Shown here: piece after piece, positions 13 through 19,139 of the stretch
How positions within the stretch are numbered: position 1 is the stretch's first letter
How the letters are laid out: each line of letters begins with the position of its first letter
Source: an uncultured virus (IMG/VR IMGVR_UViG_3300037420_001751)
Lineage: Duplodnaviria; Heunggongvirae; Uroviricota; Caudoviricetes
Direction: 5' to 3' (one strand)
Virus record (IMG/VR): IMGVR_UViG_3300037420_001751
Length of the DNA: 20,000 nt
The notes under the pieces: generated by a model
Told to the model about the DNA's origin: nothing
The model's input: the letters and a program-made list of their open reading frames with translations, nothing else
The model's database searches: none
Made by a program: the position numbers and the translations under genes

Positions 13-789
13 TTAGTCGACGACTTGGATCTTGGTCGCGTCATTTCCGGCTTTTTCCAACGCTGCGCGGTAGAGTGCCGGCTGAACTGCTTCCTGCCTC
101 GTCAGTTTCACGGTCGCGACTTGGCCGCCCCCGCCATTTCCGTTTCCACCTTGCCCGCGGTCGCTGCTCGAGCCACCGCCGGATGCTGCCGGCGCCTTAA
201 ACGCAGGAGCGTATTTCTTATCGGCTTTCGCTTCGCCCACCAGTTCGGTGATCGTCATCGCTTCACCGGTTTTGGCTGAAACACGAGCTTTGCCGTCCTT
301 CCCTACCACTTGTACCACAAAGTCACCATCTTTTTCAACGATCTTCAGGTTGGATCGGAGATGGGGGGTCACCAGGAACTCATCGCCTTCCTGGGCGACG
401 ATCTCTTTGATGAGCACATTGTCGATGAGTTCTTTCTCCAGGCGCCCTTTCATGCGGCCTTCCGCATCACGCGCGGTGGAAACTTCGCGGTCGCGCGTCT
501 TGTTGTTTTCCTGCACAGCCTGCGCGATGCGTTGGAGGACTTGCTGTTCGCGCTGATCGCCCTCTTCCATCTCTTTCAGCGCCTTCTGGATCGTGGCCGC
601 GTCGACCTTATCGCCGAGTCCGACAAACTTGTCGTACACCGTTTTGTATTTCGAATTGTTGGTCAGCAATTCCTGGTGCTTCTGCAGCAGCGGAGCCGCA
701 TCGACGACCCAAACCTCACCCTCCTGTACTGCTTTCTCCCGTACATTCTCGGGGATTTCGTCTTTGGTTGCGTACACGATCTTCGGCAT
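13..789 (-). CDS. Phage head scaffolding protein (putative)
   Basis: 258 aa directly downstream of the portal gene; charged coiled-coil middle and Gly/Ser-rich C-terminal linker (ASGGGSSSDRGQGGNGNGGGG); purine-rich RBS AAAAGGAAAAACAG before ATG. Confidence 0.75.
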   Translation of the reverse strand: MPKIVYATKDEIPENVREKAVQEGEVWVVDAAPLLQKHQELLTNNSKYKTVYDKFVGLGDKVDAATIQKALKEMEEGDQREQQVLQRIAQAVQENNKTRDREVSTARDAEGRMKGRLEKELIDNVLIKEIVAQEGDEFLVTPHLRSNLKIVEKDGDFVVQVVGKDGKARVSAKTGEAMTITELVGEAKADKKYAPAFKAPAASGGGSSSDRGQGGNGNGGGGQVATVKLTRQEAVQPALYRAALEKAGNDATKIQVVD

Positions 790-806
790 CTGTTTTTCCT
801 TTTATA

Positions 807-852
807 GGGCTTAGCCCGATTTCCAGCTTAGCTGGCTGGTAGGATTACCCTA
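807..852 (-). promoter_or_regulatory. Three short hairpins with UAA loops in the scaffold 5' leader
   Basis: Minus strand TAGGG-TAA-TCCTA (852-840), CCAGC-TAA-GCTGG (835-823), GGGC-TAA-GCCC (817-807); loops exactly 17 nt apart. Confidence 0.55.
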
Positions 853-866
853 AACGATGCCCGGGG

Positions 867-2390
867 TTAAGCGCCAGCGCCGGACTTGTTTTGGATAGTC
901 GGCTGGCCGTCGGGGCCCGGAGCGGGCTTGTTCGGATCAATGAAGGGGCCTTCTGCCTTGGCAGCGGACAACTCCTTATTGATATCCGTGTGCGGGGCCA
1001 GCACACCGCGGCGCTTTAGCTCGGCGAGGTACGTCAAATGCGAAATCTGACCCTTCAGTCGGCTTTCCAGCAACGACTGGAGATCAGCGGCGTCCTGAGC
1101 GGTAAGTCCGAAGTCCGTGCTAATAGTGATGAGCTTACCTTTCGGCGCTTCCTGCCCTTCCCACGCATACATGAAGCCCAGCGCCGCCGTGATGCCGTCC
1201 TCGGTAGCCTTCACCATTGCGCCGAGGTCGGAATCCTCCGCCTTGTTGCTATGGGACTCCTCCGTCGCCGTCGTTTCCGTCTTGCCACGCCGCTGAAGCA
1301 GTTCCGCACCCGCAACAGCCATTCGCGCTTCAATGTCCTGGAGGTCTTTACGACCCGCTTCAATGGCAGCACCCGTATGCTCGATGATCTTCATGTCCGC
1401 ATCCGGACTGGAGAGCCGCACCATACGGTCGGGGCCGATGATGATCTTATCCTTTGGGGCGCCGTTCTCGTCCAGAGTTGGTTGCCACCCCTTCAAGAAC
1501 CAAATGGGCACACGCGCCACGTGCAAAATGTTTCGCTGATCACTTGACGACTGCCAATGCTCAATGTTCAACCACGCTAGGTCTTCCAACGGGGGCTTGG
1601 CCAGCATGTAGCCGATGCGCTCCCCAAAGTACATGGTGACAAGCGGAATTTCCGGAAGGGTGATTTCCCCCTCATCCACGATGACCCACATCTTCTCGCC
1701 ACGGTCGTTCTTCACCGCCTCGAACAAGCGGAAGCCCACAACGCGCACGCCGTCCACTACGATGCGCTCAAACACACGCACACGCTCGCGGCATTCCTCT
1801 CCCCACGCGCCAACTTGTACTACTACGTGCTCAAGGATACGGAGCTGGGTCAGGACAGGACGGCCGTTTTCCATCACGTACTGCCAGCCAATCACGTTGT
1901 CGGGTTCCAGAACTACGAAGTACGGGCGAATGTTCTGGGCGGTTTTGTCCTGTAGCGTGATGCGGTTTTTGACGCTGGGGTATTCCATCAGCAAGTGGAC
2001 GATACCCTTTTTCACGCCTACTGCGAAACACTGCCGGGTGACATTGTGCAAGTCGTTCCCGAGCAAGTCCGCGTCAGTCAGGTACTCGCGGAACTCATCC
2101 TTAATCGCTTCCGAGATAGTGATGTCTTCGGAAAACGGCTTGCCCACCAGCGTGCGCACGCTGCGCGACATCCCGTTGAACAAGAAAGTCTTGTTCAAGC
2201 GATGGTTGTACCCTTGCTGCGATTCCGCGGCTTCCATCGGAAGATATTTCTGCGCTTCATCGCGCATTGCTTGAGTACCGCCCATGAGGGAGTTGATCAT
2301 ATCCCAGACGGGTTGCATCATCCTATAGGCGCGGTTAGGAGTGGAGACATCCGCCTTGGACGGGTCAATTTGCGTGATAGGCAGAATCAT
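867..2390 (-). CDS. Phage portal protein (DUF4055-like)
   Basis: 507 aa immediately after terL (4-nt overlap); motifs GGT.AMR...YLP....ES...Y..RL and PPL.DLA.LNI.HWQS.SD...ILH.A.VP typical of this portal family. Confidence 0.9.
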   Translation of the reverse strand: MILPITQIDPSKADVSTPNRAYRMMQPVWDMINSLMGGTQAMRDEAQKYLPMEAAESQQGYNHRLNKTFLFNGMSRSVRTLVGKPFSEDITISEAIKDEFREYLTDADLLGNDLHNVTRQCFAVGVKKGIVHLLMEYPSVKNRITLQDKTAQNIRPYFVVLEPDNVIGWQYVMENGRPVLTQLRILEHVVVQVGAWGEECRERVRVFERIVVDGVRVVGFRLFEAVKNDRGEKMWVIVDEGEITLPEIPLVTMYFGERIGYMLAKPPLEDLAWLNIEHWQSSSDQRNILHVARVPIWFLKGWQPTLDENGAPKDKIIIGPDRMVRLSSPDADMKIIEHTGAAIEAGRKDLQDIEARMAVAGAELLQRRGKTETTATEESHSNKAEDSDLGAMVKATEDGITAALGFMYAWEGQEAPKGKLITISTDFGLTAQDAADLQSLLESRLKGQISHLTYLAELKRRGVLAPHTDINKELSAAKAEGPFIDPNKPAPGPDGQPTIQNKSGAGA

Positions 2391-3646
2391 ACCCTAAACT
2401 CCTGGGTGCTCATTACGCCGCCGCGAAGGTCCGGAGCAACTCCAAGGACAAGATAAGCTGAGTTGTCTGTCCAGTGGTCAAGTCCGCCCTTTTTGTCCGG
2501 CAATCGAGTCCCCTCTTTGAAGCACAGTCCGTCAAATGCTTTGATGGTGTTCGGACAACCCTTGGGGTCGAAGAATAAATGCCGCTCACCGTTGGCACTC
2601 TTAAGCATAGCATTGACTGTGTTGTGCTTGTCGGTGTTAAGGTACGGCCGACCCGGATCGTACAGTTCAAATCCATGTCGGCGGATGATTGTGTAGTCCG
2701 TTTGTCCAACAACGCCTTTTGTGCTGCGGCTGTTTCCAGCCGGGTCCGGGAAGCAGACAATCGTTTTGCCGGGGAAACGGCGCTTCGTTTCCTGACACAT
2801 TTCCTCAGTATTGGAGTTGCGGATGCCGATCTCAGCGAAGAAATTGATATCGCGACCGCGCTTCTGCGCAAAGCTCGCAGTCATCGGGTCGACGTTAAAG
2901 TCCAAGCCCATTAAGATGACGCCATCTACGTATGTGTACTCGCGAAGATTACCCGTACCAATGTTGCGATCGAAGGAATCGTAAACGCGGCCAGTAAGAT
3001 TTTCAAAACTTGCGTGCCACTCTTGCTTGAACTGCCTTTCAGTGATGGTAGGATCATTCTTCGCCGTATCATACTCCGCTTGTGGGATGTAACCGCCTTC
3101 CATTGCGGTGAAATGATACGCGCCATAGTATTCAGGCGTAGCTTGCGCAGCCATGTATAGCTCATAGAAATGATCGTATCCCTTAGGAGTTCCGATAAAC
3201 AGTACACGTCCTTGGGTTGTCGCCAACATGGGACGGATAACTTCGCCCCATACATTCAGATCCATATCGGCGTACTCGTCCATCACGCAGTAATCCAGGG
3301 CCACACCGCGGAGGCTGTCCGGATTATCCGCGCCCTTGAGGGCGATCTCACTGCCGTTCTTTAGGACAATAGTGAGTTCCTGCTCGTTGATGGAGGTGCG
3401 GGCTTCCTCCGGCACGTAGCTCTTAAGAATCTTCCAGGCGATCATCTTCGCCTGTTTATAGGTAGGTGCTACATACCACGATGTCGAGCCAGGTTTTTGA
3501 GTCGCGGTTTCAATGAGCTTAGCCACCGCGAGATAAGTCTTTCCAAAACGACGCCCCGCAACCACAACCACAAAACGACGCCGATCATTGTAAATCCGCC
3601 ACTGGTTCTTTTTTAAACGGATTAGTGTGGAGCTAGGGTGAATCAC
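2387..3646 (-). CDS. terL: Terminase large subunit
   Basis: Walker A AGRRFGKT, YVAPT, Walker B YCVMDEY, coupling motif IGTP, RNase H-like nuclease acidic motifs GLDFN, DPAG, DHWTD. Confidence 0.96.
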   Translation of the reverse strand: MIHPSSTLIRLKKNQWRIYNDRRRFVVVVAGRRFGKTYLAVAKLIETATQKPGSTSWYVAPTYKQAKMIAWKILKSYVPEEARTSINEQELTIVLKNGSEIALKGADNPDSLRGVALDYCVMDEYADMDLNVWGEVIRPMLATTQGRVLFIGTPKGYDHFYELYMAAQATPEYYGAYHFTAMEGGYIPQAEYDTAKNDPTITERQFKQEWHASFENLTGRVYDSFDRNIGTGNLREYTYVDGVILMGLDFNVDPMTASFAQKRGRDINFFAEIGIRNSNTEEMCQETKRRFPGKTIVCFPDPAGNSRSTKGVVGQTDYTIIRRHGFELYDPGRPYLNTDKHNTVNAMLKSANGERHLFFDPKGCPNTIKAFDGLCFKEGTRLPDKKGGLDHWTDNSAYLVLGVAPDLRGGVMSTQEFRV

Positions 3647-3947
3647 GCCACACCCCGTTCAAAATTTGAAATTTGGCTCCGCATGCGCACTGTAGTTTAG
3701 TTTTGATCGTCAAAGGTATTTGCGAGTCCAATTGTACACTGCCAGGTATTCCGTACTTATCACCGCAGCGCATACACCTAAAGATGATGGAGGGAACGAG
3801 CCGCCACGCATCCGGGAGGAAGCAACCTTTTCCGTGATGCTTTCCTTCTGCATCACACGCGCGGCATTTGGTGATCAGGCAATAGTCGCCTTTGTGTATC
3901 ACAAGCTGAGGGCTTGGGCGACTTGTCACTTGGTGAGTGTAAAACAA
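3633..3947 (-). CDS. Small Cys-rich, probably Zn-binding protein (start uncertain, likely downstream of 3947)
   Basis: CRAC, CMRC, CACG motifs; overlaps the terL start. Confidence 0.55.
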   Translation of the reverse strand: MFYTHQVTSRPSPQLVIHKGDYCLITKCRACDAEGKHHGKGCFLPDAWRLVPSIIFRCMRCGDKYGIPGSVQLDSQIPLTIKTKLQCACGAKFQILNGVWRDSP

Positions 3948-3969
3948 AACCCCGCCACACGGGCGGGGT
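3941..3969 (-). terminator. Rho-independent terminator
   Basis: ACCCCGCC-CGTGT-GGCGGGGT followed by TTTGTTTT on the minus strand. Confidence 0.8.
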
Positions 3970-3988
3970 CATGAACTGCGGGCCTTGC

Positions 3989-4438
3989 TTACTGCCGGAC
4001 GAAAAACAAATATGTTTCCGACGCGGTAGGCGTGATCGGTGACGCGGTGTTGTTGCAGAAGTTGATCCCAACCTGGTTCGCCGCGGATGCTCGAACGTTC
4101 GGAACGCTGAGCCCGGCTTGCGCCGAGGGTTTGTTTACATCCACCACATCGCCGGTTGCCACACCGGTAACGGTGAACGTTTGCTCCGCGCAGGTGTTGG
4201 CCGCGACCTGAGCGGGGGAAATGGTGGCGGTAAGCTTTCCGAGACGGGTCACGGATGCGGCTCCGCCGGTCAGCGAAAGCGATCCACCGTCCAACTTGCC
4301 GGTTACTTCGATGAAACCATCCTGCCGGCCGACAGGGCTATTTTCGATCCAACCTTTTCCGCCGCGGCTTTGCGAAAACGCAATCACCGCGAACAGGGCC
4401 AGGCCCAAGAAGATGAGAAAACCACGTGACTTGCTCAT
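3989..4438 (-). CDS. Signal-peptide-bearing protein with a virion decoration-like beta-sandwich C-terminal domain
   Basis: Start MSKSRG after AAGGAG RBS; hydrophobic N-terminus ending AFS-Q; C-terminal pattern ISPAQVAANTCAEQTFTVTGVATGDVV...AANQVGINFCN resembles phage head/tail accessory domains (recalled, not searched). Confidence 0.55.
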   Translation of the reverse strand: MSKSRGFLIFLGLALFAVIAFSQSRGGKGWIENSPVGRQDGFIEVTGKLDGGSLSLTGGAASVTRLGKLTATISPAQVAANTCAEQTFTVTGVATGDVVDVNKPSAQAGLSVPNVRASAANQVGINFCNNTASPITPTASETYLFFVRQ

Positions 4439-4470
4439 AAGGGTGCACTCCTTACCCTTAATTATCAGCC

Positions 4471-4500
4471 AAAACAAAAAGCGCCCACAAGGAGCGCTTT
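4471..4500 (-). terminator. Rho-independent terminator
   Basis: AAAGCGCTC-CTTGT-GGGCGCTTT then TTGTTTT on the minus strand. Confidence 0.75.
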
Positions 4501-4521
4501 ATGATCCTGACGGGGCTCGAT

Positions 4522-4896
4522 TTAGAGCCGCAGCGGTGATCGGTTCTGCCAGATGTACTGGTCTGGTTCTGCGTTGACGTTGAAAAACGGATCGGACACC
4601 GTACATCGTCTGGTGACCTTTGCCTCCGTGTTCATGTATCTGCCGAGGATCGCGTGCGTACGATCCATGACTTCCTGATCGGCGCCGGCCGTGAAATGTT
4701 CGGCGGCTGCCGGTTCCTGCATGATCGACTGCTCTTTGCTATAAATAACATTCATGGCCGGAGCCACGGCTACAGGCGGCGATGCACGCATGGCCGTCAC
4801 AGCCTCTTGGTGGTGGGTGCTCGTCGGCACCGCGCTAGCGGAGACGGCGAAAACGCCCAGGAGCAGGACAAGCGTGAGTACAAGCAACGTTCTCAT
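4522..4896 (-). CDS. Hypothetical exported protein
   Basis: Start MRTLLVLTLVLLLGVFAVSASA, a Sec-type signal peptide; preceded by TTGTGC-17-TAAGCT with ATG 8 nt after the -10. Confidence 0.65.
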   Translation of the reverse strand: MRTLLVLTLVLLLGVFAVSASAVPTSTHHQEAVTAMRASPPVAVAPAMNVIYSKEQSIMQEPAAAEHFTAGADQEVMDRTHAILGRYMNTEAKVTRRCTVSDPFFNVNAEPDQYIWQNRSPLRL

Positions 4897-4937
4897 ATAG
4901 GAAAAGCTTACGCGGGGGAGGAGGGTTGCACAAGGCA

Positions 4938-4966
4938 AATTAAAAGCGGGGATTGCTCCCCGCTCT
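4938..4966 (-). terminator. Rho-independent terminator ending the ncRNA cassette
   Basis: AGCGGGGA-GCAA-TCCCCGCT followed by TTTAATTT. Confidence 0.85.
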
Positions 4967-5357
4967 CGACTCTTCTGTTGCTAGGCGTATGAGTCCCGGC
5001 CCCGCGTACCTATTTCTAGGCCGCAGCCGCCATTGCCATTGCCTTTTTAGGGGCGAACGGAACGACGTTGGATACAGTGGTTTTGCCAGCTATATCGATT
5101 GTGTGTCGACTACGTGCGCCACACCACCCGGCACGAAACAGTTCCGTCGAAGCCGTGACGCCCCCACCGTGAGCGACTCGTCATTGCTGAGCAGGGAGCT
5201 GTTAATCGCTTGTCAGGCCCAAAGAACGAGTGACAACGCGCCCGGCTATCTTGACTCCTCAATAGCCAGCATCCCTCGAATCGCGCACGGTGGAGGCGGC
5301 GGGAGTTGAACCCGCGTCCGAAACTGCGTTGACGTGCGTAGCGGAGAACAGGGTGAA
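4945..5357 (-). ncRNA. ssrA: Circularly permuted (two-piece) tmRNA gene
   Basis: Acceptor piece first (~5357-5291, ends GGACGCGGGTTCAACTCCCGCCGCCTCCA); intervening segment 5290-5166; coding piece starts at 5165 GGGGGCGTCACGGCTTCGACGG; 7-bp stem GGGGGCG/CGCCTCC with G3-U70; inter-piece helix CGGAACTGT/GCAGTTTCG; tag ORF 5087-5016. Confidence 0.95.
5016..5087 (-). other. tmRNA tag reading frame (A)GKTTVSNVVPFAPKKAMAMAAAA*
   Basis: Resume context ATAGCT|GGC AAA; 23 codons then TAG; hydrophobic Ala-Ala C-terminus typical of ssrA degrons. Confidence 0.9.
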
Positions 5358-5361
5358 CAAA

Positions 5362-5726
5362 AAGGCTCAACTCATCCCCCGAATCCAACCGCCGTACTTC
5401 CCGCCACGGCTCGTGGCGATATGTTTACGTGGCGCGTCCGCCCAAGGTGGAACGTATTTCCTGTCCTCTTTGTCATAAAGTGCGGTTGTATGCCTACGAC
5501 CACACCCGGCCTATCAGAGGTCAGGGGCCCTTTACACCGTCGGGGCCAGCGCGGTGGTCCGCCCTGTTCCCCGCTACGTACATCAAATGGCCGTCTCTCC
5601 GACCTGTCATACGGATTCTCTTAGGAGTGCTAGCGTATTTAGAACCGTATATTAACGTGCTCTCATTCCGGTCTCCCATTCGGGCTAGGACCTACCCAGA
5701 CATGTCCTTCGCAGTGATCGAGCCTT
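5362..5726 (-). ncRNA. Large structured ncRNA, possibly a compact ROOL-like RNA
   Basis: Closing helix AAGGCTCGA/TTGAGCCTT (extendable); internal helices ATACGGTTCT/AGAATCCGTAT, AGGTCGG/CTGACCT, GGCCC/GGGCC, GTGTGGTCGTA/TACAACCGCAC, CGCCACG/CGTGGCG; no credible ORF. Family assignment is from recall only. Confidence 0.6.
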
Positions 5727-5735
5727 AGGTACCAG

Positions 5736-5853
5736 GCTGGTCTAGTCACAAAGATCAAAATTTGGTATACGGTGGTGAGTTTTTGGTTCACCGTATCTTT
5801 CCAGCACTCCCGAAAGGTGTATCCAGCTTCGACCATTGAACCCACAGGCCAGC
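5736..5853 (-). ncRNA. Rod-like structured RNA of unknown type
   Basis: Nested pairings GCTGG/CCAGC, GGTCGAAG/TTTTGATC, TGG-ATAC/GTAT-A-CCA, apical GGTGA/TCACC; lies between two other ncRNA domains. Confidence 0.4.
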
Positions 5854-5865
5854 AGTCGGGGTGCA

Positions 5866-6067
5866 GGCTGTAATTTGAGAGCCCCACCGCTCCGATTCGA
5901 ACGGAGAGTACCGGCATTGGATAACCCAGTATCCGATGCGCTGGTGACAACGAGGATGCCTCCTCCGCCACTCCCTATTGCGTACCGCGTCACGCTAAAC
6001 GTGACAGCGGGTAGGTCACTCCAGGCACACGCAATGCGCCACCTTGTGGGGCTCTCAAATTACAGCC
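5866..6067 (-). ncRNA. Oversized tRNA-like RNA closed by a perfect 22-bp inverted repeat
   Basis: GGCTGTAATTTGAGAGCCCCAC at 5866-5887 and its reverse complement at 6046-6067; T-arm CTCCG-TTCGAAT-CGGAG (5906-5890) next to the closing stem; three further arms. Confidence 0.65.
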
Positions 6068-6108
6068 AGTCAAAAGCAGGATTGCCCGCCAACCCTGCTC
6101 TTGACTGG
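6066..6108 (-). other. 19-bp RNA hairpin
   Basis: CCAGTCAAGAGCAGGGTTG-GCGGG-CAATCCTGCTTTTGACTGG; fully paired on the minus strand using two G-U pairs. Confidence 0.7.
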
Positions 6109-6209
6109 ATGGACCGGGGTATGTCAGCCACGGTCGTCCAGTGTGCGGAGGCGCCAGAGCATAGCGGCCTCACAGCTCCGCGGGGCACAGGTCCCGCATC
6201 ACTAAGTAC

Positions 6210-6238
6210 ATGCTAGCAGCGCATGTTTGTACGTACAA
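6210..6238 (-). promoter_or_regulatory. Sigma70-type promoter for the ncRNA cassette
   Basis: TTGTAC-17 nt-TAGCAT with extended -10 TG, preceded by ACC as in other promoters of this window. Confidence 0.7.
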
Positions 6239-6245
6239 GGTATTC

Positions 6246-6458
6246 TCAATCCCTCTTCTTGGGCGGAACGATACGCAGTATCTCTTGCACTAGTTCCGTG
6301 TGCTCCGAATTCATCAAGCGCATCACATCCGCGCTGATTTCTTCGATCTTGGGTAGCCGCAAGGGCAGCGGCAAAACCGCAAACTTGCCGGCAAGGATGT
6401 TGATTTGCATGTTTGCATGGTACAGCTTTTTGAAGAGCTTGAATTCCTTTTCCGTCAC
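6246..6458 (-). CDS. Hypothetical protein
   Basis: 70 aa ORF with 4-nt overlap to the upstream gene. Confidence 0.55.
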   Translation of the reverse strand: MTEKEFKLFKKLYHANMQINILAGKFAVLPLPLRLPKIEEISADVMRLMNSEHTELVQEILRIVPPKKRD

Positions 6459-6730
6459 GGTTTCCCCACAAAGGCAGAACTACGATAGTAGTCGTCGTGA
6501 TGCGCTTGGTCATATCGGTGCCCTTCTGAAACTTCGTGAGCACGGTAACCCCACCATTTCTTGTAGTAGTCACCGAAATCACTGTCCAAACAGAGTTTGA
6601 CCAGCTTAGGACGGGGGTCGTATCCGGTCCCCAAGCAGCGGTAACACGTATACATCCGTACCTCCCCTCCGCCGCTTTGAACCGTCACCATCCCATCGCC
6701 CTCACAGCTCCGACAGGCGTTTGATTCCAT
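6455..6730 (-). CDS. Small protein with DnaJ-type CxxCxGxG zinc finger
   Basis: CRSCEGDG and CYRCLGTG; ATG 6 nt after a TAGCAT -10. Confidence 0.65.
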   Translation of the reverse strand: MESNACRSCEGDGMVTVQSGGGEVRMYTCYRCLGTGYDPRPKLVKLCLDSDFGDYYKKWWGYRAHEVSEGHRYDQAHHDDYYRSSAFVGKP

Positions 6731-6739
6731 GTGTGTATG

Positions 6740-7201
6740 CTATTTGGGTGGATTGCGCTGCGCTAGGTGCAATCGGCGCTTGAAAGAACGCCGATAATCG
6801 ATGATTTTCGTGTGTTTTTTCGAGTTGCAGAGGGCGCAGAGGGGCTGGATATTGCGGATACCGTTGCTCCCGCCCTTGATAAGCGGTACCACATGGTCGG
6901 GAGTGAGTTTCTTGTTACCACACAAGCACGAGACGCAGCGGAACTGATATTTCGCCTTTAGGGCTTCCCATTCGGTTGCGGTATAGTGCTCGCCACCCTG
7001 CACTAATCGCCATCGTCGCCGAGATTGGTACGCGTTGTACTGATTTTGATTCCTTTTCCGGTGATTGTGCTGAGTTTCGTAGTTGCGGGCTGAGTTTTTC
7101 CTGCGCCAGGCACGCTGATAAGCAGCCCAATGAACCGCGCAGTAGGCGCGATTCATAGGCCGATCTTGGCGGCAACGCGGATGGCAGCACTTGGGGTGCA
7201 A
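6740..7201 (-). CDS. HNH endonuclease (start TTG 7201 or ATG 7156)
   Basis: CVSC...LTPDHVVPLIKGGSNGIRNIQPLCALCNSKKH; N-terminal C-x-C-x-CxxH cluster and Arg-rich helix. Confidence 0.9.
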   Translation of the reverse strand: MHPKCCHPRCRQDRPMNRAYCAVHWAAYQRAWRRKNSARNYETQHNHRKRNQNQYNAYQSRRRWRLVQGGEHYTATEWEALKAKYQFRCVSCLCGNKKLTPDHVVPLIKGGSNGIRNIQPLCALCNSKKHTKIIDYRRSFKRRLHLAQRNPPK

Positions 7202-7619
7202 TGAGGGTAGTATCGTGCACCCGCTGCTGGGTGGCAATGATGAACCGCACGAAATCCGGGTTGCGCAAGAGAAAATCCGCCCATTCCACACCCGCAAAGT
7301 AGATACCAGGGTGCGTTCTGTTCGTAGGGGACACGTTGTTGTAGACGGAATCACCACCTTTGTCACAGGCGATGGCATGAAACAGCTCATGCGTGAGCAG
7401 CGTGAACGTATCTCTCTCCTCTTGGTTGTTCAAAATGAAGATTTCATGCTGGGCGCAACGGGTGAGCGCAAGAAAATCCGGCTCTCCAGACATTTCCTGC
7501 ATCTTTTTCTTGTTGGTATAGCTGATTTTCCAATTTTCGCCGCGAATTTTCACAGGAGTGGGGAGGGAAAGGGCGTGCGCGGCAATGACAAAGAGGAAAA
7601 CCGTGAGGAGGTACCGCAT
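6915..7619 (-). CDS. HEXXH zinc metallopeptidase-like protein with signal peptide
   Basis: TLLTHELFHAI motif; hydrophobic N-terminus MRYLLTVFLFVIAAHA; C-terminal tail overlaps the HNH gene. Confidence 0.75.
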   Translation of the reverse strand: MRYLLTVFLFVIAAHALSLPTPVKIRGENWKISYTNKKKMQEMSGEPDFLALTRCAQHEIFILNNQEERDTFTLLTHELFHAIACDKGGDSVYNNVSPTNRTHPGIYFAGVEWADFLLRNPDFVRFIIATQQRVHDTTLIAPQVLPSALPPRSAYESRLLRGSLGCLSACLAQEKLSPQLRNSAQSPEKESKSVQRVPISATMAISAGWRALYRNRMGSPKGEISVPLRLVLVW

Positions 7620-7759
7620 GGGTGCATTGTCGGAGGCCCAAAATGTAAAAGCCAGCAGGTGAAACATGAGGTGACCCGCTGGCTCTTAACGACGGCAAAC
7701 CTTCCTTAGCAAAACATCGTCTTTTAGGAGAATTTCCTTTCTTATAACTTTGAAGTCGG

Positions 7760-7800
7760 AAACTTAAAGCGGCCCAACCACTTTCGTCAGTTAGGCCGCT
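7760..7800 (-). terminator. Probable terminator hairpin
   Basis: AGCGGCCTAACT...GAAA...GGTTGGGCCGCT followed by TTAAGTTT. Confidence 0.55.
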
Positions 7801-7818
7801 CGCGGTCCTCCGCTACAG

Positions 7819-7968
7819 CTATTTTACTGCGCGGGTGCGCTTGCGGCGCGGCGTTTTACGTGCGAGCGCCGCCTTCCAAGCTATGTACTGCTGCTTCGTG
7901 AGCACGCGGCGGAGGAACGCCTCGTTCAAGCGTGACAGCGGGGGCGGGAACTGGATAAGTGTGCCCAC
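7819..7968 (-). CDS. Small basic hypothetical protein
   Basis: GTG start 7 nt after extended -10 TG-C-TACACT; Arg/Lys-rich C-terminus. Confidence 0.5.
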   Translation of the reverse strand: MGTLIQFPPPLSRLNEAFLRRVLTKQQYIAWKAALARKTPRRKRTRAVK

Positions 7969-7984
7969 GCTGGCAAGTGTAGCA

Positions 7985-8863
7985 TCAACTTCCGTACGAG
8001 TAGTCCAAATCGTCAAACGCCACGCTGAAAGGTTGACCCTTCGCGTTGGTACCGATCTGGAGCTGCATGTGGAGGCCCTCGGACCAGCTAGTCATCGTCG
8101 GGGATTGGCTTGTGAACTTTCCCGCTGGAATCGGATAGCGGACTCCGTTCAGCGTTAACGCGACGTATCCAAAATCCGCGCTCTTGGTGTTGAAGCGATA
8201 CTCCCACTGGAACACGTTCCACTGGTTTGAGATGAGCTTAGGAACCGAAATCACGTCCTGCCAGCCCTTGTTTCCGGAAGCGTCGTTCACCAACTGCAGC
8301 ATGCCGCCCTTCGCGTAGTTGATCTGGGACGAAAGGTTGTACTTGTATCCTGCCTTGGTCAGCAGGGTATCGAACTCCAGCGCTTGCATCCCGGCCGCGG
8401 CTCGGTCGTCGTGGAAGATTCGACCCGTCCAAACCAGCCTTCCGCCCTCCCGCTCCACCGGGCGGCGATGCAGGTGGACAAGGAAACCTGAGTAGTCGCC
8501 CGCTAGCGATTTATCAAAGTAAAGCACCAACGCGCGGTCACTGCCTCCGACCTTCTGCATCTGGCGGAAACCGTAATCCATCCCTTGAACCAGCTTGGGG
8601 TTGAGCGGCGCAATATCCGGTCCCACGCCAATCAAAAGATCCACGTGCAAGTGACAGTCGTGCATTCCGGAAACTGGGGTGAGTTGTTGGTCCAGCCTTT
8701 GCTGGAGATTTAGGTTCAACGCGGCCGCGGTGTCGACGGCTTGTTGCAGTTCGTTGATCTGGGTGGTGGCGTCCTGTGCGAGAACATCAATTTTGTCTGT
8801 GATCGGTTTGAGAAAGTCAGCAACTGTTTGCTTAGCGGAATCGTACGTTCCTTGGATTGACAT
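7985..8863 (-). CDS. Hypothetical protein: N-terminal coiled coil plus probable beta-sandwich (lectin/lyase-like) domain
   Basis: 292 aa; Gln/Leu heptads in the first ~60 aa; aromatic beta-rich C-terminus (NQWNVFQWEYRF...LTLNG...FDDLDY). Confidence 0.7.
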   Translation of the reverse strand: MSIQGTYDSAKQTVADFLKPITDKIDVLAQDATTQINELQQAVDTAAALNLNLQQRLDQQLTPVSGMHDCHLHVDLLIGVGPDIAPLNPKLVQGMDYGFRQMQKVGGSDRALVLYFDKSLAGDYSGFLVHLHRRPVEREGGRLVWTGRIFHDDRAAAGMQALEFDTLLTKAGYKYNLSSQINYAKGGMLQLVNDASGNKGWQDVISVPKLISNQWNVFQWEYRFNTKSADFGYVALTLNGVRYPIPAGKFTSQSPTMTSWSEGLHMQLQIGTNAKGQPFSVAFDDLDYSYGS

Positions 8864-8871
8864 GCTGCGAG

Positions 8872-9138
8872 TATAGCAGCTTCTAAGGTCGCATGCTAGG
8901 TTCTTTTCTTTCCACGACCACTACATTCATCCCGGACATGTATGGGAGGAAACTTTCTACTGTCGCGGCGACACGCGGCATGAATCCGTGTATCCAGCGT
9001 AAGCACTCGTCCACCAGCGTGACGTCGGTTCGTTCGGGAGCGTATATCTCAATACAGTACTCGGCCACCTTGACCATGGGGAACCATCCTTTGCTCGGGG
9101 CCCTCTTGATACATGAAGCATTATAGCAGCTTCTAAGG
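8872..9138 (-). repeat. 17-bp direct repeat at two extended -10 promoters (8872-8888, 9122-9138)
   Basis: CCTTAGAAGCTGCTATA occurs twice on the minus strand, continuing as TATACT and TATAAT. Confidence 0.75.
8883..9077 (-). CDS. Hypothetical protein
   Basis: 64 aa ORF between the two repeated promoters; AAGGA upstream. Confidence 0.5.
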   Translation of the reverse strand: MVKVAEYCIEIYAPERTDVTLVDECLRWIHGFMPRVAATVESFLPYMSGMNVVVVERKEPSMRP

Positions 9139-9468: not shown

Positions 9469-9768
9469 CTACTTGGCCATATACGTGACGTGACGTCCCT
9501 CGCGCTTCTTGCTGATGGCAAAGTCGCGCTCATCGGGGAGCCGGCTCAGCTGCGCACGCACCGTGATTTGCATGCCCTCGCGCTTGCGGTCGGGGAACTG
9601 CTTCTGCAGCGTGTCGAGGATGCCCGCGACCGTGACCGGCTTTTTCTTTGCCTTCGCCTCGGTCAGCTGCGTGATGATGCTGGCGATAATGCCCGGCTGC
9701 GCGGTCGTCGTTGCGTTGGCTTTGGCTGTAACTGCTTGCTGGGGAGCTGCTGCTTTGTGCTTTGACAT
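9469..9768 (-). CDS. Small basic putative DNA-binding (winged-helix-like) protein, paralog 1
   Basis: Shares QPGIIA.I...L..AK...KPVT...ILD.L.K.FPDR...GM.ITVRAQLSRLP...REGR.VTY with 10108-10431; own promoter TAGACA-17-TACATT (9855-9827). Confidence 0.75.
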   Translation of the reverse strand: MSKHKAAAPQQAVTAKANATTTAQPGIIASIITQLTEAKAKKKPVTVAGILDTLQKQFPDRKREGMQITVRAQLSRLPDERDFAISKKREGRHVTYMAK

Positions 9769-10107: not shown

Positions 10108-10431
10108 TTAGGCGGCCGCGTAGGTGACCACGCGCCCTTCGCGATGCTTCTTGATCTTCAGGTCCTTCTCGCGCGGCAGACGCGAGAGCTGGGCGCGGAC
10201 GGTGATCATCATTCCCGACGCTTCGCGGTCAGGGAACTTCTTCGCCAGGTGATCGAGGATCTGCTTCGAAGTGACCGGCTTGCCGTTCTCCTTGGCCTTC
10301 TTCAGCGTGGTGACGATCTCGGCGATGATACCAGGCTGCGCCGTGGTCTCCGCGTTCTGCTTGCTGTTCGCCGCGACTGCTTCCGCTGCCTTGGTGCTAT
10401 TCTTTTTGGCCTTCACTGCTTTGGTGGACAT
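10108..10431 (-). CDS. Small basic putative DNA-binding protein, paralog 2
   Basis: Lys/Ala-rich N-tail and the same core as 9469-9768; promoter TTGTAG-17-TAGGAT (10532-10504); RBS CACAGGAG. Confidence 0.8.
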   Translation of the reverse strand: MSTKAVKAKKNSTKAAEAVAANSKQNAETTAQPGIIAEIVTTLKKAKENGKPVTSKQILDHLAKKFPDREASGMMITVRAQLSRLPREKDLKIKKHREGRVVTYAAA

Positions 10432-10661
10432 ACTGTGTTCTCCTGTGCTGTTTGGCTAGGGTGCGCGGTAGCGTTGCCCCGCGTCCCTGCTAGCAATGTG
10501 TACATCCTAATATGGGCAACGCTACCCTACAAGGTAAATCGAAAAATATTTTGGGGTCGAAAGGTTCCAGGTAATTTGACCGCGGCTAGAGGTCAGCTGA
10601 CGAATCGGCTGAATCGTCATTTTTGGATTAGTAACCACCTGACGAATCATTCGCTATCGAT

Positions 10662-12549: not shown

Positions 12550-13115
12550 ATGAGTCCATTGTTCTTGGTCAATGGTCGGAGGTCAATTTTGGATTAGTAA
12601 CCACTTTTGGATAATTTCGACCTGAAGAAATGTCATCTGGTATAGCGGATGGTAAACCAGATGGTGAACCAGTGGTTTTTGCACTCTCCGGAAAACAACG
12701 GTGTATGCGGTGTCATGTAGGTATAGCAAGTTTTTGAAGTACTGGGTCGTGGATTGAAGGACGGGGGAAACATTGTCATGAGACCTGTAGGTTTCCACCG
12801 TCCATTAGTGTCAGGTGCTGACACCGTACTAAAAGCTGTACTGTCTATGGTTTACCCTGTTTTGGTGTCAGCGTGTCAGCACTTTTGGGATTTTATTCAA
12901 TCCACGACTCGCTATTTTTAAAAGTTGCATAGTAAGCGCCCGCTGGCACCTCCGGCCTCCAGCCTCCGCCTAACTCACTCATACCAAAGTCATTACCACC
13001 AAAAACATCCACTAACAGCCGTGTCTACCATTTTTGGTAATGTACACCCAAGACACCAAAAGGCACCCGTTCTCGGGCAAATTTACATTTAAAAATAATT
13101 GAGTTAATTTTAATA
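12550..13115. promoter_or_regulatory. Divergent non-coding control region with repeats (candidate packaging site, genome end or origin)
   Basis: No credible ORF; lower GC; GATGGTRAACCA x2 (12648-12671); GTGTCAG-N3-CTGACAC (12808-12824); GTGTCAGC x2 (12865-12880). Confidence 0.5.
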
Positions 13116-15241: not shown

Positions 15242-15367
15242 GATTGGACAAGACATTCAAATCCCAACCACAGACGGTTACACACTGCACTGTCGTATCA
15301 TCAACATCCTTGCACCGGTACCCGCCTTCTTGTTACCACAACCGCGATTCAAAAAGAAAGGTTGCAC

Positions 15368-16000
15368 ATGGAATACCACAAAATCGAAACACTCTTCGAA
15401 CGCGACGAGCAAACGTTCAAAGTCAAACCGGGCGTCTTCAAAAACCGCACCTACTCGCTCCTCAAAAGCTGGGTCTGGACGGAAAAGATCGACGGGACGA
15501 ATATCCGACTGATCTACGAACCGCAAGTTCCGGGCATTACCGGGAGCCTCCGCATTGCGGGTAAGACGGATAAAGCCTCCGTCCCCGCGCAACTGGTGAA
15601 ATGGGCCTCCGACCCCGATCTGCTGAAACTGCTCGTCGTCACATTCCCCGATGCGCCGGTGGTCCTGTACGGCGAAGGCTACGGCGCCGGCATCCAGAAA
15701 GGCGGGGTCTACGCACAGCAACAAGGCTTTATCTTGTTTGATGTGCTCGTGGCTGGGAAGTGGTGGCTGAGTGACGAGAACATGCGCAACGTCGCATCCA
15801 AGCTCGCCCTCAAGGCAGTGCCGCTCGTGGGCACAATGTCTTTGGAACAGGCTACAGAAATGGTTCACCAGGGATTCGCGAGCCAGGTCGGTCAAGGTGC
15901 TCCAGCGGAGGGCTTAGTCGGCCGTCCCGCCGAGACGCTGTTTGACAAGAAAGGCGCCCGCCTCATCACCAAGCTGAAGACGAAGGACTTTGCCCGGTGA
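15368..16000 (+). CDS. ATP-dependent RNA ligase (Rnl2-like adenylyltransferase domain)
   Basis: Motif I TEKIDGTN, III LYGEGYG, IIIa FILFDV, IV EGLVGRP, V ITKLKTKDF; N-terminal YHKIETLF; no OB-fold domain. Confidence 0.85.
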   Translation: MEYHKIETLFERDEQTFKVKPGVFKNRTYSLLKSWVWTEKIDGTNIRLIYEPQVPGITGSLRIAGKTDKASVPAQLVKWASDPDLLKLLVVTFPDAPVVLYGEGYGAGIQKGGVYAQQQGFILFDVLVAGKWWLSDENMRNVASKLALKAVPLVGTMSLEQATEMVHQGFASQVGQGAPAEGLVGRPAETLFDKKGARLITKLKTKDFAR

Positions 16001-19084: not shown

Positions 19085-19113
19085 TTAAGTTCAAAAATTT
19101 TTGCTGTTATATT
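19085..19113 (+). promoter_or_regulatory. Promoter with palindromic operator-like site
   Basis: TTAAGT-17-TATATT, extended TG, CAAAAATTTTTG at 19092-19103. Confidence 0.65.
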
Positions 19114-19139
19114 TGTCCTAGTAAACACAGGAGACCACA

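Follow-up and report, generated by a model that had tools for sequence, protein, structure and literature searches.

A stalk-closed domain upstream of a two-piece tmRNA gene in a soil phage: a possible processing leader

Directly upstream of a two-piece tmRNA gene in an uncultured soil phage lies a 258-nt domain (5586-5329, minus strand) that is closed by a long-range helix of 27-28 bp, the 3' strand of which extends into the sequence of the tmRNA itself. This helix, hereafter the stalk, is statistically real, and the reading preferred here, albeit tentatively, is that the stretch originally flagged as a 365-nt structured RNA (5362-5726) forms part of a long untranslated pre-tmRNA leader with a stalk for processing by a double-strand nuclease. 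The flagged 365 nt are not a natural unit, because their first 140 nt fold like shuffled sequence and their terminal helix depends upon a cut at 5362.

The tmRNA gene and the stalk that abuts it

The window, meaning the whole 20,000-nt stretch of DNA that was analyzed, is phage DNA with a G+C content of 54.6%, in which comparison with Pfam and PHROGs identified the following genes:

13-789, minus strand: head scaffold protein
867-2390, minus strand: portal
2387-3646, minus strand: large terminase (TerL)
6455-6730, minus strand: Q-like antiterminator, a weak match (E 8.6e-6)
6740-7390, minus strand: HNH nuclease
15362-16000: RNA ligase

Every gene from 13 to 8863 is carried by the minus strand, and the tmRNA gene is located on this same strand between the possible antiterminator and the packaging genes, which lie downstream. 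A search of 4400-6700 found no sigma-70-like promoter. Together, the lack of a recognizable promoter of its own and this one-strand setting suggest that the tmRNA would need to be freed from a long transcript. The stretch is present in eight DNA runs from eight studies of soil, rhizosphere and plant metagenomes, all listed holders being DNA, and the run pieces that match it beyond short matches (four runs) are all identical to the window, with zero variation. Cultured phages with the nearest portal proteins (36-39% identity) display a different gene layout.

The tmRNA gene itself is complete and circularly permuted, matching the Rfam family tmRNA_permuted (RF04321) at 5337-5046 with 66.3 bits against a cut-off of 47. 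In addition to this score, membership of the family is evident from an acceptor stem with G3-U70, in which GGGGGCG pairs with CGCCUCC, and from a tag frame ending in Ala-Ala followed by a stop; as read by ARAGORN the tag is ...APKKAMAMAAAA-stop, ending ...AMAMAAAA-stop. ARAGORN places the tRNA-like domains at 5326-5289 and 5165-5139, its gene start at 5380 being padding, such that the tRNA-like part begins at 5326 (ARAGORN) or 5337 (Rfam). The T-arm, GCGGG-UUCAACU-CCCGC, is contiguous and its T-loop is intact. The flagged stretch lies outside the RF04321 model, positions 1-9 of which are overlapped by the 3' strand of the stalk. The features of the gene and of the region upstream of it are, in the order of transcription:

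5866-6067, minus strand: second stalk-closed domain, 202 nt, a perfect 22-bp stalk around 158 nt (inverted repeat and fold; second in the duplex scan)
5587-5726, minus strand: 5' 140 nt of the flagged stretch, non-coding, structure at chance level (z +0.07, 96/200 shuffles as good)
5557-5586, minus strand: 5' strand of the stalk (A), from a 30-nt inverted repeat with 83% Watson-Crick pairs, 28/30 positions pairing when G-U is counted
5359-5556, minus strand: 198-nt interior of the 258-nt domain (minimum-energy and centroid folds), comprising an irregular long hairpin (5553-5433, GGCA tip), a hairpin (5429-5393), and a hairpin (5390-5364) followed by a five-U run (5363-5359)
5329-5358, minus strand: 3' strand of the stalk (A'), outside the flagged stretch and overlapping the first 9 nt of the tmRNA_permuted match (inverted repeat, fold, Rfam alignment)
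5289-5337, minus strand: tmRNA acceptor piece with a P2 strand, the T-arm (5315-5299) and the acceptor 3' strand (5298-5292), then ACC (RF04321, ARAGORN)
5166-5288, minus strand: intervening segment of the permuted gene, 123 nt, its closing helix being an extension of the acceptor stem to about 21 bp (5298-5277 with 5159-5180; Rfam, inverted-repeat search, fold)
4942-5165, minus strand: tmRNA coding piece with the acceptor 5' strand GGGGGCG (G3-U70) and the tag frame (5087-5016 by ARAGORN; Rfam, ARAGORN)
4967-4942, minus strand: terminator closing the tmRNA gene, -19.3 kcal/mol, z -4.9 (fold against shuffles)

Several lines of evidence set the stalk apart from the background of the window. Firstly, the minimum-energy fold contains 27 of its pairs, arranged as 6+17+4, and the two strands (5586-5557 and 5358-5329) pair with a probability of 0.91 in four sequence contexts, i.e. 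in every context that includes both. Secondly, the three-hairpin domain as a whole reaches -121.9 kcal/mol (z -5.46, with 0/200 shuffles as good). Thirdly, when the stretch was compared with its surroundings, the local complement score was 35, as against 18.7 +/- 2.2 for shuffled sequences (maximum 30; 0/200 reach 35), and this was the sole relation between stretch and neighborhood to beat shuffles, the five other comparisons having 41 to 200 of 200 shuffles as good. Similarly, pairing of the acceptor flank with the 400 nt upstream of it reached -50.1 kcal/mol, a z of -5.55 relative to 100 shuffled flanks. Finally, in a duplex scan of the 20-kb window, in which about 1950 30-nt segments of the minus strand were each set against the sequence 100-430 nt downstream, the three strongest helices were the acceptor/intervening-segment stalk (-48.5 kcal/mol), the 22-bp stalk of the 202-nt domain (-45.4 kcal/mol) and the stalk of 5586-5329 (-44.6 kcal/mol). 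All three lie in tandem within 6067-5159, the best helix elsewhere in the window reaching -41.6 kcal/mol. Imperfect repeats of similar length do occur elsewhere in the window at long range, and the plus strand of the 258-nt domain folds as well as the minus strand (z -5.82).

The position of the stalk relative to the tmRNA is of particular consequence. It covers 5337-5329, including the GCACG that constitutes the 5' strand of the first helix in the Rfam tmRNA model and that is the partner of the coding piece. Since both structures use this GCACG strand near 5337, the stalk and the first tmRNA helix are mutually exclusive. The pseudoknot ring is largely lost in two-piece tmRNAs, and one alternative holds that the domain takes its place in the mature molecule: the acceptor piece would begin at 5586 or before, with the stalk as a distal P2 in cis and the 198-nt interior in place of the ring or, in a variant of this proposal, with the domain as the decayed first copy of the tandem duplication that permuted the gene. 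The resulting topology of a long helix, a ring of roughly 200 nt, a T-arm and an acceptor strand resembles that of a one-piece tmRNA, and the coding piece offers 5358-5338 weak partners (-22.5 kcal/mol, within its 3' tail). Nevertheless, this alternative appears quite unlikely given that neither an acceptor 5' strand nor a D-loop analogue is seen upstream of 5586, that the domain has no direct similarity to tmRNA (41/200 shuffles as good), that the GGCGGUUGGAUUCG motif within it adds nothing to the score of the standard tmRNA model RF00023, and that the stalk competes with a helix that Rfam models.

Related candidates were also tried and rejected. A relic 5' half of a standard tmRNA marked by the GGCGGUUGGAUUCG motif finds no place, RF00023 scoring 41.6 bits both with the motif (match 5393-5288) and without it (5280-5345 alone), and as a relic acceptor 5' strand GGCGGUUGGAUUCG could form just 4/7 acceptor pairs. 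Nor did the similarity of the stretch to the tmRNA or the upstream domain, as would be expected of paralogues, exceed that of shuffles.

The 202-nt domain (6067-5866) is more strongly structured than the flagged stretch, at -108.5 kcal/mol and z -7.95 with 0/200 shuffles as good; it has no Rfam match, and an exact search with its arm found no copy in IMG/VR. A hairpin reminiscent of a T-arm, CUCCG-UUCGAAU-CGGAG, adjoins the 3' strand of its stalk. Abutting the 22-bp stalk is a 19-bp hairpin (6066-6108, minus strand; -34.3 kcal/mol, z -6.4) that resembles a terminator and has no proper U-run; situated downstream of the weak Q-like antiterminator match, it could be a terminator that a late antiterminator overrides. 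Repeats were also observed further from the tmRNA gene. A 23-nt motif, GTCATTTTTGGATTAGTAACCAC, occurs between genes in three copies (10616-10638, 12582-12604 and 19106-19128; 74-100% identity) and is a candidate phage promoter or regulator site. A 33-nt inverted repeat (12726-12758 with 12896-12928, 79% complementary) surrounds 137 nt with few ORFs and is possibly a further element closed by a stalk. Two exact copies of a 17-nt direct repeat are found at 8872-8888 and 9122-9138, 250 nt apart, and an 86-nt repeat at 9632-9717 and 10271-10356 (71% identity, 639 nt apart) probably derives from paralogous small genes.

Borders, coding potential and known RNA families

The original prediction described a highly paired RNA of 365 nt, closed by a terminal helix around at least six internal ones and separated from the tmRNA acceptor piece by a few U-rich bases. 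Folded in isolation, the 365 nt do form more than six internal helices (minimum-energy fold, -142.3 kcal/mol) and are more strongly paired than expected (z -3.19, 0/100 shuffles as good), yet this strength does not extend to the first 140 nt, and the plus strand folds almost equally well (z -2.87). When 365-nt segments across this phage are regressed on GC, the stretch has a residual of about -1.2 sd by arithmetic from the regression coefficients, the outliers of that regression being 5825-6189 and 5734-6098. The terminal helix, in which AAGGCUCGA (5726-5718) pairs with UUGAGCCUU (5370-5362) on the minus strand, exists on condition that the RNA ends at 5362: its mean pair probability is 0.93 with that end and 0.00 in all four longer contexts, i.e. 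those extended to 5320 or further (42 more bases), and its duplex energy is -14.2 kcal/mol versus -47.1 kcal/mol for the stalk. The description of the gap before the acceptor piece proved inexact, as this contains both the five-U run and the 3' strand of a strong helix. The ncRNA half of the original prediction holds up in a modified form: the stretch is non-coding, and a strongly folded domain takes in its 3' two thirds, with borders that differ from those predicted and that enter the 5' flank of the tmRNA.

The five-U run is pertinent to a second alternative, namely that one or two independent structured small RNAs with a job of their own, either the 258-nt domain or a 365-nt unit ending at the U-run, are made beside the tmRNA, much as ROOL and GOLLD are made beside phage tRNAs. 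Were transcription to stop at the U-run, the 365-nt terminal helix would form, and the non-coding nature of the stretch, the strength of the domain and the presence of a second, still stronger stalk-closed domain upstream are each consistent with such RNAs. The hairpin before the U-run is however weak (-11.4 kcal/mol, z +0.5), the 5' 140 nt of the 365-nt unit have no structure beyond chance, the 3' strand of the stalk is tmRNA sequence, and no relatives were found in the collections searched, where a covariance model of the domain matches only itself; an independent RNA is accordingly judged rather unlikely.

The flagged stretch is non-coding, and lies within a region from about 4897 to at least 6201 in which no credible gene was found. 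All ten ORFs tested in 4953-6216 score negative in codon use (-0.001 to -0.18), as compared with positive scores for 10/12 training genes in leave-one-out tests. No Pfam or PHROG family was found for the ORFs of the stretch. A 99-aa ORF that covers most of it has no credible relative and no cluster of its own among 1.84 billion representatives; its lone marginal match (E 2.7e-4) involves 35 residues of a 762-aa protein with five matched stretches. A small protein gene, whether the 99-aa ORF, a 96-aa plus-strand ORF or a minus-strand ORF, is therefore very improbable: ORFs of 52-102 aa do overlap the stretch, but codon use, the lack of families and the isolation of the 99-aa ORF all speak against their translation, and the plus-strand ORFs run against every neighboring gene. 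A 126-aa ORF further upstream (6202-6582, minus strand; GC3 0.39) also has a negative codon-use score and no family, so that the leader free of genes may extend to about 6454. This possible extension contains a 25-nt imperfect inverted repeat (6302-6326 with 6497-6521).

The suggestion that the stretch is a compact ROOL variant did not survive comparison with covariance models. With Rfam 15 at gathering scores, the whole window contains tmRNA_permuted only. Three further searches of decreasing size at E<=10 were likewise negative: models of ROOL, GOLLD, OLE, RNase P and group I/II introns gave no match in 4800-6400, and no Rfam family, ribozymes included, matched in 5320-5760. The original prediction had itself named the lack of a ROOL hit as grounds for abandoning the family guess, and the likeness to ROOL that it ascribed to certain sequence segments is supported by no tool. 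The setting does agree with that of ROOL in that the genes are those of a phage and a tRNA-like gene, the tmRNA, adjoins directly downstream, a feature that is unspecific to ROOL. The intron form of tmRNA, in which a group I intron splits the T-loop, is further contradicted by the intact T-loop, the site of all known tmRNA introns according to PMC11915505. Taken together, these data leave a negligible probability that the stretch is an RNase P RNA, an intron of group I or group II, or a compact form of ROOL or GOLLD. Relics of tRNA genes were sought and rejected as well: at 75% thresholds ARAGORN made 47 calls in 20 kb, 4 of them in the 1.7-kb non-coding stretch, as many as chance would give.

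The search for relatives

No homologue of the stretch was found in any collection searched. When 4900-6250 was compared by blastn with 50,697 phage records, one 37-nt match to the T-arm resulted, and none was obtained with plasmids. TerL relatives, none exceeding 48% identity, were located at 32 IMG/VR loci and at 31 loci of JGI metagenomes, and none of these loci has a tRNA or tmRNA gene or any likeness to the leader. Exact pattern searches of IMG/VR gave 0 matches for a 23-mer of the stretch, 0 for the 22-bp stalk arm, and 2 chance matches for a 17-mer of the stalk; a 31-mer of the T-arm was found at 12 loci with likeness confined to the T-arm, and a degenerate T-arm pattern at at least 115 loci, where, among the matches listed, just one 23-nt match fell outside the T-arm, at the start of the coding piece in L202. 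In a scan of about 800 sampled Pseudomonadota genomes, 19/401 genomes of the class of an alphaproteobacterial MAG and 207/401 of its phylum were matched; among the matches listed, these consisted of the T-arm alone or of short chance matches. Likewise, a covariance model of 5586-5329 had its own sequence as the sole match in 193 sources, and it gave no match in 20 whole viral records with permuted tmRNAs. As judged from these sequence collections, the lack of homologues leaves the second of the originally proposed options, a new large ncRNA class, neither shown nor refuted.

The tag of the tmRNA does have counterparts. Unusual Ala/Met-rich tags ending in AAAA or AHA were observed in the two-piece tmRNAs of three unrelated phage contigs, namely the window (...KKAMAMAAAA, 5016-5087), L211 (G404; ...SASMAFAAAA) and L212 (G405; ANAPKAMAAHA). 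The two contigs other than the window, a 47.7-kb contig (...AFPASASMAFAAAA) and a 332-kb phage (ANAPKAMAAHA), are unrelated viral contigs with short, plain spacers upstream of their tmRNAs, and have neither a TerL relative nor any likeness to the leader; in the 332-kb phage, the first 23 nt of the coding piece are identical to those of the window. In one scan of genome contigs for the tag-coding pattern, no host tmRNA with such an Ala/Met-rich tag was found, the 4 matches being due to chance and all lacking a tmRNA.

Pairing between the acceptor flank and its upstream region was compared across 21 distinct permuted-tmRNA loci of viral contigs, leaving out L072 (identical to L066), L073 (called twice by ARAGORN) and L188 (a duplicate flank), and using L211 and L212 instead of the shorter L185 and L202. 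Such pairing is strong in the window alone; of the other 20 loci, 18 lie above z -0.5, and the remaining two reach z -2.1 and, with large loops, z -3.3. The idea that phage two-piece tmRNA genes generally have an upstream stalk is thereby rejected: strong at 1/21 loci, the stalk is a private feature of this phage and not a rule of phage tmRNA genes. Two observations on individual loci deserve mention in their own right. L067, a T4-like viral contig, carries an inverted repeat of roughly 20 bp (UUGGCCCCCCUUAAAGAGCA with UGCUUUUUAAAGGGGGCCAA) around about 55 nt directly before its two-piece tmRNA, about 60-140 nt upstream of the acceptor piece. In L075, the first 95 nt of the ARAGORN span form a tRNA-like domain in standard order (GGGGGCG, D-loop analogue, short helix, T-arm, acceptor strand) with no tag frame between the parts, identifying this locus as a mini-tmRNA that ARAGORN mislabelled as permuted.

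The restriction of the stalk to a single lineage is also relevant to a further alternative, in which the region has no function as RNA and is a spacer whose inverted repeats act on DNA, as a protein site or a recombination scar, or arose by chance or local duplication. Both strands of the 258-nt domain and of the upstream 202-nt domain fold equally well, relatives of the tmRNA exist without a stalk, and other long imperfect repeats are present in the window, all of which speak for such a spacer. Against it stands the finding that the three strongest local helices of 20 kb occur in a row, free of ORFs and on the transcribed side of a stable-RNA gene, and that one arm of the stalk overlaps conserved tmRNA sequence; the identical copies in eight runs from eight studies show spread, not selection. 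On balance a purely DNA-level or accidental origin is regarded as rather improbable.

A putative processing stalk in comparison with known systems

Under the preferred reading, that of a pre-tmRNA leader with a processing stalk, the working part would be the 258-nt domain 5586-5329 rather than the 365-nt unit, the 3' strand of the stalk being the immediate 5' flank of the acceptor piece. Leader and tmRNA would be co-transcribed as one RNA, within which the stalk would serve processing in a manner akin to the leader-trailer stalks of stable-RNA precursors. Firstly, a double-strand-specific nuclease of the RNase III type would cut the stalk. Secondly, the acceptor piece would by this cut have its 5' end detached from the transcript upstream, and the 198-nt interior would be discarded or released. 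Thirdly, RNase P and the enzymes of tRNA 3'-end maturation would excise the intervening segment, just as in two-piece tmRNAs elsewhere. Before the cut, the stalk would mask the strand that is due to pair with the coding piece.

A helix of such length is a usual substrate of RNase III, and the stalk has the length and location that processing by an enzyme of this type would call for: a long-range helix of about 20 bp or more that adjoins a mature RNA, here of 27-28 bp and -47.1 kcal/mol and one of the three strongest of the window. The clustering of the three stalks, one of which (that of the intervening segment) is an excision structure already known from permuted tmRNA genes (PMC3985003, PMC11915505), also supports the processing-stalk reading. 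In E. coli, cleavage of pre-tmRNA on its 3' side has been attributed to RNase III or RNase E (PMC3968760), and according to PMC3985003, RNase P and tRNase Z probably complete the maturation of two-piece tmRNAs.

Despite this support, several findings count against the processing-stalk reading. No homologue of the domain was found in the collections searched, and hence no covariation that would attest selection of the helix at the RNA level; the fold of the plus strand is as good as that of the minus strand; and the stalk encloses a spacer-like domain and not a mature RNA, unlike the stalks of rRNA. In addition, an upstream stalk is strong in 1/21 phage two-piece loci, the spacers of the two phage tmRNAs closest in tag are short and plain, and other parts of the window contain imperfect repeats comparable in length. 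Finally, a separate RNA could terminate at the weak hairpin with its five U (5390-5359), ahead of the synthesis of the 3' strand of the stalk.

A bolder extension of the same reading is that the late-operon leader encodes two new stalk-closed RNAs, of 202 nt and 258 nt, that are cut from the tmRNA precursor, the second being a pro-sequence whose stalk would hold the acceptor pairing strand until a double-strand nuclease cuts it, such that the tmRNA would be timed and self-masked. This extension is considered unlikely. Should the stalk prove to be a real processing site, it would reveal the means by which a phage releases its two-piece tmRNA from a long late transcript, and would demonstrate that a tmRNA can stay masked in its precursor. 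At present, the main value of the analysis, which concerns a single orphan sequence, is that of a correction, in that the stretch is not ROOL and has other borders, together with a helix that can be tested.

Comparison with known systems places the neighboring gene on familiar ground. Phage two-piece tmRNAs have already been described: in the survey of PMC9004378, 53/133 unique phage tmRNAs were called two-piece, 50/53 of them from marine or aquatic phages. The gene in the window is of this same known kind, and differs from those reported there in its soil phage origin, its tag ending in AMAMAAAA and its strong upstream stalk. A literature search on tmRNA found no description of a masked, stalk-bound leader before a phage two-piece tmRNA.

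ROOL is near 600 nt in length. With ROOL (RF03087) and GOLLD (RF01998) the stretch shares a phage-borne, non-coding, multi-helix character and a location beside a tRNA-like gene; it is however much shorter, matches neither covariance model at E<=10 and belongs to no conserved family. GOLLD is often >800 nt (bioRxiv 10.1101/2024.12.08.627333).

The precursors of rRNA and other stable RNAs contain leader-trailer stalks that are cut by RNase III. The present stalk is similarly a long-range helix of >20 bp, would likewise lie in a stable-RNA precursor, and is thermodynamically dominant within a tandem set. It differs in that it surrounds a spacer-like domain and merely abuts the mature RNA, in that no boxA-type signal was recognized, and in that its cut is predicted.

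A final parallel is offered by the intervening segment and protruding ends of permuted tmRNA genes (Keiler, 2000; Sharkady and Williams, 2004; as cited in PMC3985003 and PMC11915505). The domain differs from an intervening segment in lying upstream of the acceptor piece and not between the pieces, in its length of 258 nt versus 123 nt here, and in showing no evident tRNA-type end for RNase P or RNase Z. Both are nonetheless untranslated, folded and closed by a helix in continuation of a functional tmRNA helix; both would belong to the same precursor and presumably be cut away; and the window's own intervening segment possesses a stalk of just this sort.
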